64,000 nt of DNA from the NCBI GenBank assembly GCA_934488615.1, contig CAKSSJ010000009.1, positions 774 to 64,773 on the forward strand, read 5' to 3'. This document shows positions 11,129-12,469 of this stretch, piece after piece. A model generated the notes under the pieces. The model made no database searches. It saw only the letters and a program-made list of their open reading frames with translations, and had not been told where the DNA came from. Each line of letters opens with the position of its first letter. The first letter of the stretch is position 1. A program made the position numbers and the translations under genes. The DNA is from an uncultured Eubacteriales bacterium. Its GTDB lineage: Bacteria; Bacillota; Clostridia; Oscillospirales; Acutalibacteraceae.

Positions 11129-12469
11129 ATGAAGCTTAAAAGAATTCTTTGTGCCGCTCTTTGCGCACTGCTTCTCATTTCTCCCGTTCAGGTATTTGCG
11201 GCAGCAACATATGTTTCCGATTTGCAGATCGTTTCGTGCAAAACTCCCGTGTCCGCAGAGGACACGGAGCTTGCATGGGCTGTCAAACTCGGCACCTCGT
11301 ATAAAAATGCTCCGAGCACTCAAGTTGTTGTCGGCGACACGCTGATAGTCATGAGCGGCAAAAAGCTCATGAAGCTCAATATCAAGAACGGCAAAACGGT
11401 CAAATCCGCCGACATGGTCGATATGCCGAGCTACGGCTATACTCCGCCCGTTTACGTTGACGGTGTTATCTACTGTCCGCTCGACAACGCAAAAATTCAG
11501 GCATTTGACTGCAAAACGATGAAGTCATTGTGGGTCTATTCCGACCCCCTCGGCGGTCAGTCGCTGACCCCGATAACCTACAGCGACGGCTGTATTTACA
11601 CAGGCTTCTGGAACGATGAGGACAGAAAAGCTAACTATGTTTGCATAAACGTCACAGACGAGAATAAAAAAGAAACGCATGAGGCAAAAAAAGCTACATG
11701 GACCTACACAAGCCTCGGCGGCTTCTACTGGGCAGGCTGTGCCGCAGTCGGCGATAACGTTGTTTTCGGCTGTGATGACGGAACGATCTATGCCAACAAA
11801 AATTCAAAGGCAGTTTCAGTCAACAAAAAGACAGGAAAGCTTGTCGATACTCTCTCAATAATCGGCGACCAGCGTTCGTCAATGACCTATCGGAACGGAA
11901 CGCTTTATTTCACGACCAAGGCGGGATATCTTTACAGCGTAAAGCTCAACGCAAACGGAACGTTCAACGATTCCTCCGTTAAGCGTCTTTCGCTCGGCGG
12001 AGCCTCGACCTCAACGCCGCTGATCTATAACGACAGACTTTATCTCGGCGTCCAGGGCAAGGGCTTCGGGGCAGGATATTTCAAGGTGATCGACGCAAAC
12101 AAGCTGACCGTTATTTATTCGGCACAGACAAAGGGCTATCCTCAGGGCAAATTTCTTTTGAGCGACGCTTATCTCAAGGACACGGGCAAGGTCAATATCT
12201 ATATCACCTACAATTCCGCCCCCGGCGGAGTGACAATGTTCAAGGATTCGGCAGGTCAGACCAAGGCGGACATGCAGGAGCTTTACGCTCCCGCGGGCGA
12301 CATGAGCAACTACTGTATCAGCTCAATAGTTGCCGACGAAAACGGAACGATTTTTTATAAAAACGATTCGGGCTACATTTTTGCCCTGCGTAATAAGACA
12401 GAAAAGGTTTCGTTTTTCAAAAGAATTATAAACGCTATTGTCAGCTTTTTCAAAAAGCTTTTCGGGTAA
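11129..12469 (+). CDS. Secreted PQQ-like (BamB-type) beta-propeller repeat protein
   Basis: Signal peptide MKLKRILCAALCALLLISPVQVFA. Repeated blade motifs: DGVIYCPLDNAKIQAFD, DGCIYTGFW, GDNVVFGCDDGTIYA, NGTLYFTTKAGYLYSV, NDRLYLGVQG, NGTIFYKNDSGYIFAL. Confidence 0.85.
   Translation: MKLKRILCAALCALLLISPVQVFAAATYVSDLQIVSCKTPVSAEDTELAWAVKLGTSYKNAPSTQVVVGDTLIVMSGKKLMKLNIKNGKTVKSADMVDMPSYGYTPPVYVDGVIYCPLDNAKIQAFDCKTMKSLWVYSDPLGGQSLTPITYSDGCIYTGFWNDEDRKANYVCINVTDENKKETHEAKKATWTYTSLGGFYWAGCAAVGDNVVFGCDDGTIYANKNSKAVSVNKKTGKLVDTLSIIGDQRSSMTYRNGTLYFTTKAGYLYSVKLNANGTFNDSSVKRLSLGGASTSTPLIYNDRLYLGVQGKGFGAGYFKVIDANKLTVIYSAQTKGYPQGKFLLSDAYLKDTGKVNIYITYNSAPGGVTMFKDSAGQTKADMQELYAPAGDMSNYCISSIVADENGTIFYKNDSGYIFALRNKTEKVSFFKRIINAIVSFFKKLFG

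Follow-up and report, generated by a model that had tools for sequence, protein, structure and literature searches.

The propeller proteins BtuG and BtuK1 bind vitamin B12 on one face of the propeller through residues of polar and aromatic type, and the propeller of BtuG has seven blades (PMC13616437). In BtuGH of Bacteroides a BtuG-type propeller is fused to a BtuH domain (PMC13616437; PMC8941943), a domain shown by experiment to bind B12 in Bacteroides (PMC8941943). For low-GC Gram-positives, Burroughs, Balaji, Iyer and Aravind (2007) predicted B12 scavenging from operons that combine SLBB with CbiO/CbiQ, and recorded one SLBB-beta-propeller fusion (Clostridium gi 28210494), reading the extra domains as possible surface tethers (PMC1796856). 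Putnam et al. (2022) noted a BtuH homologue of Eubacterium siraeum that adjoins a transporter resembling the energy-coupling factor (ECF) class (PMC8941943), and a 2026 review of the relay in Bacteroides describes what BtuH/BtuJ homologues do in Firmicutes as "entirely uncharacterized" (PMC13616437). Here we describe a beta-propeller protein encoded in an operon of an uncultured member of the Acutalibacteraceae, on a 64,000-nucleotide stretch of contig CAKSSJ010000009.1 (assembly GCA_934488615.1) that is called the window below. We found no role in B12 uptake assigned in the literature to the family of this propeller beyond the 2007 mention. Our results place the protein in an extracellular B12 capture apparatus with a probability of roughly 0.85-0.9. 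The system is an uncharacterised variant within the operon type already predicted in 2007 (PMC1796856), and is less new than the initial annotation of the window implied.

The propeller gene is an open reading frame of 446 codons on the + strand, running from the ATG at 11129 to the TAA at 12469 and encoding 446 amino acids (aa). Its ATG lies 3 nt past the stop of an upstream gene of 735 codons and its own stop lies 6 nt before the next ATG; with spacings this short, the gene is therefore one cistron of a tightly packed operon. A word-indexed search returned 436 members of the stand-alone 445-aa propeller family, from which the 80 best loci in reference genomes (labelled L001 onward) were taken for comparison. 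These loci come from Acutalibacteraceae, Oscillospiraceae, Ruminococcus sp. CAG:488/563, Saccharofermentans and other Clostridia. Synteny was counted by tblastn with the proteins of the window, and a locus was considered well flanked if it had at least 2.5 kb upstream and at least 5 kb downstream. A DUF4430 gene or domain was present on the same strand within 10 kb in every well-flanked locus (44/44), and ECF genes were present in 40 of the 44. Linkage to DUF4430 and ECF genes persists from 95% down to 44% identity and across several gene orders.

The same loci were examined for cobalamin riboswitches in two ways. A leader sequence profile, built from 18 of the scored loci, matched upstream and on the same strand in 56 of the 59 loci whose upstream flank exceeds 3 kb, and gave no match on the opposite strand among those 59. 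Since the profile was drawn from 18 of the same loci, its matches are not independent evidence, while the matches to RF00174 are. Whole-genome searches with RF00174 covered 31 source genomes, and the coordinates were mapped by hand onto the locus ranges. Canonical matches lie just upstream of the propeller operon in L042 (87.7 bits), L049 (84.4), L053 (57.5) and L068 (50.5). Three RF00174 copies are present in L080, one of them between the propeller gene and the gene for the ECF T component (L080:4778-12478); importer and capture proteins are therefore separately switchable there. Several loci have multiple cobalamin riboswitches (two or three), and L062 has a tandem pair (6414-7224).

The initial annotation had made its reading depend on homologues elsewhere being linked to B12 riboswitches or transporters, and we find that this linkage holds family-wide. 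Judged by gene neighbourhood, the propeller is a bona fide member of a cobalamin-riboswitch/DUF4430/ECF cluster, with DUF4430 as its tightest partner. Distribution of the gene is patchy, as it was found in 2 of 151 sampled genomes of the order. The operon contigs of L001, L005, L006 and L013 (74-95% protein identity) are binned as Bacteroidaceae, Bacteroides faecis, Coriobacteriaceae and Eggerthellaceae; binning errors are a likelier explanation of these odd placements than transfer.

In the window, the operon and the parts of the propeller gene are laid out as follows.

8444..8472, + strand: sigma-70-type promoter, TTGACA-17-TATCAT with a TG extension, from a consensus match alone (11/12 positions)
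8467..8600, + strand: short cobalamin-riboswitch-like aptamer, from RF01482 and RF00174 scores below the cut-offs and conservation in relatives
8647..8673, + strand: hairpin and run of seven T (T7) abutting the first ATG, from the fold of 8600-8685 (z -3.95 for all of that segment)
8674..8925, + strand: 83-aa HNH_repeat protein, the first cistron (Pfam PF18780, 46.3 bits)
8918..11125, + strand: 735-aa exported surface protein whose BtuH-type domain (aa 28-282) is accompanied by Big_2 and Ig-like domains, a domain marginally like DUF4430 and an amphipathic tail (PDB, Pfam, Foldseek)
11129..11200, + strand: signal peptide of the propeller protein (aa 1-24), from sequence, the N-terminal helix and low-confidence linker of the structural model, and the family consensus
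11225..12403, + strand: eight-bladed beta-propeller of PQQ/BamB type (aa 33-425), from Pfam, the AlphaFold2 model, Foldseek and a profile search against PDB
12404..12466, + strand: basic amphipathic C-terminal helix (aa 426-446), from model helix 429-445 and the hydrophobic moment
12476..13414, + strand: ECF T component, weakly CbiQ-like (Pfam; syntenic in 62/80 loci)
13387..14973, + strand: fused double ECF ATPase, EcfA-EcfA' (TIGR04520, 336 bits; ABC_tran twice)
14958..15653, + strand: ECF S component, CbrT-like (best PDB sequence match 6FNP_A, E 3.5e-8)
15685..16407, + strand: DUF4430 (transcobalamin-like SLBB) lipoprotein with lipobox LLSGC (PF14478, 61.9 bits)
16382..16777, + strand: cytoplasmic single-domain rhodanese, the last gene (Pfam; active-site loop CKTGER)

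The protein encoded directly upstream of the propeller carries the clearest B12 signature. The N-terminal domain of the 735-aa protein matches BtuH2 (PDB 7BIZ) with E 3.5e-19 in a single-sequence search and E 3.2e-29 in a profile search, and Foldseek with a model of the protein gives 8BLW_B (BtuG1/BtuGH) and 7BIZ as top matches at 28-29% identity. By these matches the 735-aa protein is a Gram-positive homologue of the B12-binding BtuH of Bacteroides, and the link to B12 is firmer than the initial annotation knew. That annotation had placed the propeller gene between a DUF4430-bearing surface protein and the ECF genes. The ECF genes do follow downstream, whereas DUF4430 in the middle domain of the upstream protein is marginal at best (Pfam E 0.099, BLASTP E 0.004); the clear DUF4430 match of the operon is the lipoprotein encoded beyond the ECF genes. 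Big_2 in the same protein scores 41 bits, and a profile search with the 735-aa protein returned no transcobalamin chain.

Downstream, the S component is matched by Pfam ECF-ribofla_trS and ECF_trnsprt as well as by 6FNP_A, which is CbrT of ECF-CbrT, an experimentally proven B12 transporter (PMC5997447). No btuB is present in the operon; ECF genes stand in its place. The make-up is that of an SLBB/DUF4430 B12-scavenging operon, with a DUF4430 lipoprotein, an ECF T component and a fused ECF A-A' in a genome without CbiD or CobS. At the operon's ends, the HNH_repeat protein (a single homing-endonuclease-associated repeat) is kept in position in 42 of the 80 loci, down to about 45% identity, and the rhodanese is restricted to the closest relatives (L001-L014). 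One idea for the rhodanese is that it handles cyanide after decyanation of the vitamin.

At the Rfam gathering thresholds, no match was found anywhere in the window. The leader scored 40.7 bits with RF01482, the adenosylcobalamin (AdoCbl) model (cut-off 50; E 1.2e-4 in 16 kb and 2.5e-6 in 321 nt), and 19.8 bits with RF00174 (cut-off 31.5), the sole such site in the genome. Because the leader is detected solely with E-value thresholds, its identity leans partly on relatives, and loci of the window's own clade score 24-28 bits with RF00174 at the homologous spot. In an alignment to canonical riboswitches of distant loci, the GGUG...CC core and the B12 box AAGTCGGAATACC are retained in the leader, and the P6 extension is absent. 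The leader of the window is thus probably a short cobalamin-riboswitch variant. Control by a B12 riboswitch, as assumed in the initial annotation, thereby stands for the family, from the canonical relatives and the leader in 56 of 59 loci, and is probable for the window, whose own leader falls below the cut-offs. A short variant of this kind slips under current Rfam thresholds and would be missed by standard annotation. The hairpin at 8647-8673 is weak (six pairs with a bulge); with the T7 run it is probably an attenuator.

At its N-terminus the propeller protein has a Sec-type signal peptide (MKLKRILCAALCALLLISPVQVFA/AA), which is kept in the family consensus, and inspection of the sequence there revealed no lipobox. 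All six blade-like motifs named in the initial annotation, along with the signal peptide, were confirmed in the 446-aa product: DGVIYCP at 111-117, DGCIYTG at 153-159, DDGTIYA at 216-222, NGTLYFTTKAGYLYSV at 256-271, NDRLYLG at 301-307 and NGTIFYKNDSGYIFAL at 405-420. They form the inner hairpins of blades 2, 3, 4, 5, 6 and 8, so that the earlier count of at least six blades holds and rises to eight with blades 1 and 7, which are outside the set and had been missed. The match to Pfam PQQ_2 (PF13360; PQQ, pyrroloquinoline quinone) reaches 36.6 bits, above the cut-off of 27.6. With 42 homologues as input, AlphaFold2 gave a confident model (pLDDT, the per-residue confidence score, 89.6; predicted template-modelling score, pTM, 0.87) that shows eight four-stranded blades, with the N-terminal strand 46-53 closing blade 8. 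The closed propeller on which the earlier proposal relied is therefore predicted, in an eight-bladed form.

The protein ends in the tail VSFFKRIINAIVSFFKKLFG, whose hydrophobic moment of 1.83 was matched by none of 2000 shuffles. This amphipathic tail is conserved across the single-domain family; multi-domain relatives have transmembrane (TM), SLH or wall-binding anchors in its place, and two of them (P0142 and P0171) keep the same tail. The helix is probably a surface or membrane tether. Similar basic amphipathic helices end both large exported proteins of the operon (11039-11122 and 12404-12466), where no LPXTG, lipobox or TM segment was found.

Foldseek against PDB gave 1865 matches to the propeller model, of which the best 50 were examined. 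The top matches among these 50 were BamB (E 5e-19), the designed eight-bladed protein Cake8 (TM score 0.86 on the target, root-mean-square deviation 3.3) and YxaL. In a search of PDB sequences with the family profile, YxaL and BamB chains were matched at 1e-6. On the evidence of the model, the propeller belongs at the fold level with the BamB/YxaL propellers. BamB and YxaL share its blade number and velcro closure and are its best structural and Pfam relatives, but they differ from it in sequence (12-19% identity) and have no B12 context, BamB being a lipoprotein of Gram-negative outer-membrane assembly.

Comparison with BtuG (B. thetaiotaomicron BtuG2/BtuG3, PDB 8BMZ) shows a likeness of setting, namely a surface propeller in a cobalamin-riboswitch B12 locus beside other B12 binders. 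BtuG binds B12 on one face, and in the present protein one loop face is the best conserved part. However, BtuG is a seven-bladed propeller of YncE type and an N-terminally lipidated outer-membrane lipoprotein that caps the TonB-dependent BtuB, whereas the present protein is an eight-bladed propeller of PQQ/BamB type with a Sec signal and an amphipathic tail, comes from a Gram-positive and is found with an ECF-CbrT-type importer. The lack of a sequence relationship to BtuG reported in the initial annotation was borne out, as the family-profile search of all PDB chain sequences returned no BtuG or BtuK chain at E<=10; the best 50 of the 1865 Foldseek matches also contained no BtuG. Membership of the BtuG or BtuK families was rejected, given eight blades versus seven, no lipobox, no BtuB partner and no sequence match. 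With no sequence link and a different blade number, any functional likeness to BtuG would therefore be independent, as the initial annotation had supposed.

BtuK1 (BT1486, PDB 9S6C) offers a second and independent instance of a propeller encoded in a B12 locus. It binds cyanocobalamin, and its cofactor is solvent-exposed, which suggests a hand-off role. BtuK1 is a lipoprotein with a PKD domain and a seven-bladed propeller, whereas Pfam finds no PKD domain in the present protein, and neither BtuK structure (9S6C, 4R5O) was returned by the family-profile search of PDB. The paralogue BtuK2 does not bind B12, and a propeller in a B12 locus is therefore no guarantee of binding. The closest parallel in gene content is BtuGH (BT1490) together with BtuH2 (BT1956, 7BIZ), in which a BtuH-type domain is likewise partnered with a propeller. 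BtuGH is one fused chain; in the window the BtuH-domain and propeller genes are adjacent, and in some relatives they are fused. The propeller is of a different class from that of BtuGH, and the BtuH protein of the window adds Big_2 and other domains. This pairing of BtuH and propeller, which the initial annotation had not seen, supports the analogy to Bacteroides. The present protein would be a plausible functional analogue of BtuG or BtuK1.

Two further systems bear on the comparison. The operon type is that of Burroughs et al., but the stand-alone propeller family, riboswitch control and the near-obligate pairing with DUF4430 are absent from the 2007 work. ECF-CbrT of Lactobacillus delbrueckii (6FNP) represents the type of transporter presumably served, CbrT being the best PDB match of the S component. 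Unlike the arrangement proposed here, the characterised ECF-CbrT works without extracellular accessory proteins; its S component shares the general ECF module.

Conservation was analysed over 146 divergent propeller domains, with loops allotted to faces according to the order of strands in the model (topology). Residues conserved at 90% or more account for 35 of 123 positions on the face formed by the D-A and B-C loops, 14 of 79 on the opposite face and 19 of 175 in strands, and the difference between the D-A/B-C face and the strands is significant (p 2e-4). The conserved residues of this face are mostly polar or aromatic: Q144, F160, W161, E164, Y200, W201, D247, R249, S250, K264, T294, Y337, Q339, N362, Y395, N412 and D413.

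The propeller also occurs in much larger proteins. A profile search of 1.84 billion representatives placed the wider family in 1248 clusters at 50% identity (E<1e-30), and 138 of the 148 proteins analysed from the top 150 exceed 520 aa (most have 800-3500 aa), with the propeller as an internal domain. These giants have signal peptides and C-terminal TM anchors, SLH, choline- or cell-wall-binding repeats or the same amphipathic tail, and they include the modules Big_2, Cadherin-like, Flg_new and LRR_5 (BspA). At least 67 of the 138 carry a DUF4430-like or BtuH-like domain in the same chain, as judged by phmmer with the domains of the window, and in the clostridial giants P0133, P0149 and P0191 a BtuH domain is fused to the propeller. 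Five giants without DUF4430 in the chain were examined for neighbours, one of which (L081) lay on a contig too short to judge. In all four that could be judged a DUF4430 gene adjoins the propeller gene, and in three of the four ECF or candidate ECF genes are nearby. Canonical cobalamin riboswitches are present in three of these four loci: L082 (a divergent pair, 121.5 and 123.8 bits), L083 (58.5) and L084 (127.5).

In L082 (5152-7944) two divergent operons each stand behind a canonical cobalamin riboswitch. The first encodes a 752-aa Prenyltrans-like protein (alpha/alpha toroid) and a separate 184-aa DUF4430 protein, followed by ECF genes, and the second a DUF4430/Big_2 protein and a propeller protein. 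The toroid and DUF4430 proteins of the first operon look like a "split transcobalamin". In L085 (161-11150) a DUF4430-propeller pair lies downstream of two dockerin-bearing proteins; these modules may be displayed there in the style of a cellulosome.

Taken with the genes around it, the propeller protein would be a dedicated accessory of a corrinoid capture apparatus that feeds an ECF importer of CbrT type. In the mechanism we propose, the protein would leave the cell through the Sec pathway, with its amphipathic C-terminal helix probably keeping it at the cell surface. The D-A/B-C loop face would take a direct part in holding or transferring corrinoid together with DUF4430/SLBB and BtuH-type domains, and the vitamin would pass from these outer binders to the S component. 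That the conserved face itself holds or hands over the corrinoid with the SLBB and BtuH domains is a step for which we see the odds as about even. Tentatively, and with the chances rather against it, the protein could add a third, independent class to the B12-binding propellers known from BtuG and BtuK1 and be the core of a Gram-positive extracellular relay to ECF-CbrT; it may then form one half of a clamp with DUF4430/SLBB, in place of the alpha/alpha toroid of transcobalamin.

Several observations weigh against this picture. The riboswitch of the window itself scores under the Rfam cut-offs, and the DUF4430-propeller pair of L085 has no riboswitch within 8 kb upstream. The nearest structural relatives of the propeller, BamB and YxaL, are scaffolds and not small-molecule binders. 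The contrast in conservation between the two loop faces is merely suggestive (p 0.09).

The rival that survives best is that the propeller is purely a scaffold, a docking platform like BamB on which the binders (BtuH-type and DUF4430) would be positioned about the ECF transporter, with no contact between propeller and corrinoid. This would agree with the identity of its best structural matches (BamB and YxaL), with its constant pairing with DUF4430 proteins and with its possession of a tether of its own, as the remaining surface components have. The data agree with a scaffold or hand-off role about as well as with B12 binding and feeding of the transporter, the job that the initial annotation had proposed. 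However, very high conservation is seen at over 20 polar or aromatic loop residues despite less than 50% identity and differing partner architectures, a pattern met more typically with a fixed small ligand than with co-evolving protein interfaces. In addition, in the two known cases of a propeller from a B12 locus that gave a positive test, the vitamin itself is what is bound (PMC13616437). We regard a scaffold without any corrinoid contact as unlikely, while treating it as a serious competitor.

A second rival holds that the propeller is a cell-wall tether, which binds peptidoglycan or a surface polysaccharide and merely anchors the B12-binding proteins. Burroughs et al. listed a beta-propeller fusion among the presumed surface-tethering domains of SLBB proteins (PMC1796856), and the giant relatives are typical wall-associated proteins. 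Yet the giants already have dedicated anchors (TM, SLH, choline- or cell-wall-binding) and the stand-alone form has its tail, and constant company with DUF4430 (44/44) and the riboswitch leader (56/59) would be unexpected for a pure anchor. No carbohydrate-binding or lectin propellers are among the best 50 of the 1865 Foldseek matches. This role appears quite improbable.

Slightly more improbable is an enzyme that, with the conserved face as its active site, would have corrinoids or B12 carriers from host or diet as substrates and would free or remodel the vitamin ahead of import. Invariant Asp, Glu, Arg, Lys and Asn do cluster on one face, and eight-bladed enzymes (tetrathionate hydrolase and PQQ dehydrogenases) are among the best 50 of the 1865 fold matches. 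A PQQ-dependent dehydrogenase was nevertheless rejected, since the protein scores far below the cut-offs (TIGR03075, 21.6 versus 480 bits; TIGR04528, 29.8 versus 650) and its domain of about 390 aa is much shorter than the 550-600 aa of those enzymes. The protein showed no recognisable catalytic motif of any known family. A search of the genome for PqqC gave no match, and control genomes gave no signal either.

That the propeller is an unrelated passenger, a generic surface adhesin domain travelling with B12 operons, is very improbable: its fusion to adhesin-type modules (Cadherin-like, LRR_5/BspA, Flg_new, Big_2) and its patchy presence (2/151 genomes) would suit such a role, but the linkage to DUF4430, ECF genes and riboswitch survives divergence from 95% to 44% identity and several gene orders.

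The 2.0-Mb genome (95% complete) has a single protein with a B12-binding domain, an 835-aa frame that domain and size suggest to be MetH. CbiD and CobS were not found in the genome, and no cobalamin-riboswitch-like site other than the operon leader was seen there. The organism looks like a corrinoid auxotroph, with the propeller operon apparently its sole recognisable B12-regulated locus. The finding bears on how Gram-positive gut bacteria compete for extracellular vitamin B12, and the operon would be a compact Gram-positive counterpart that unites a BtuH-type protein, a propeller, a transcobalamin-like lipoprotein and an ECF-CbrT-type importer under one riboswitch. The propeller family is large and is annotated no further than as "PQQ-like repeat". 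Should binding or relay of corrinoids by the propeller be borne out, a new B12-binding architecture would be added; propellers would then have been recruited to B12 capture independently in two phyla, and the family would serve as a marker for corrinoid scavengers in gut metagenomes.

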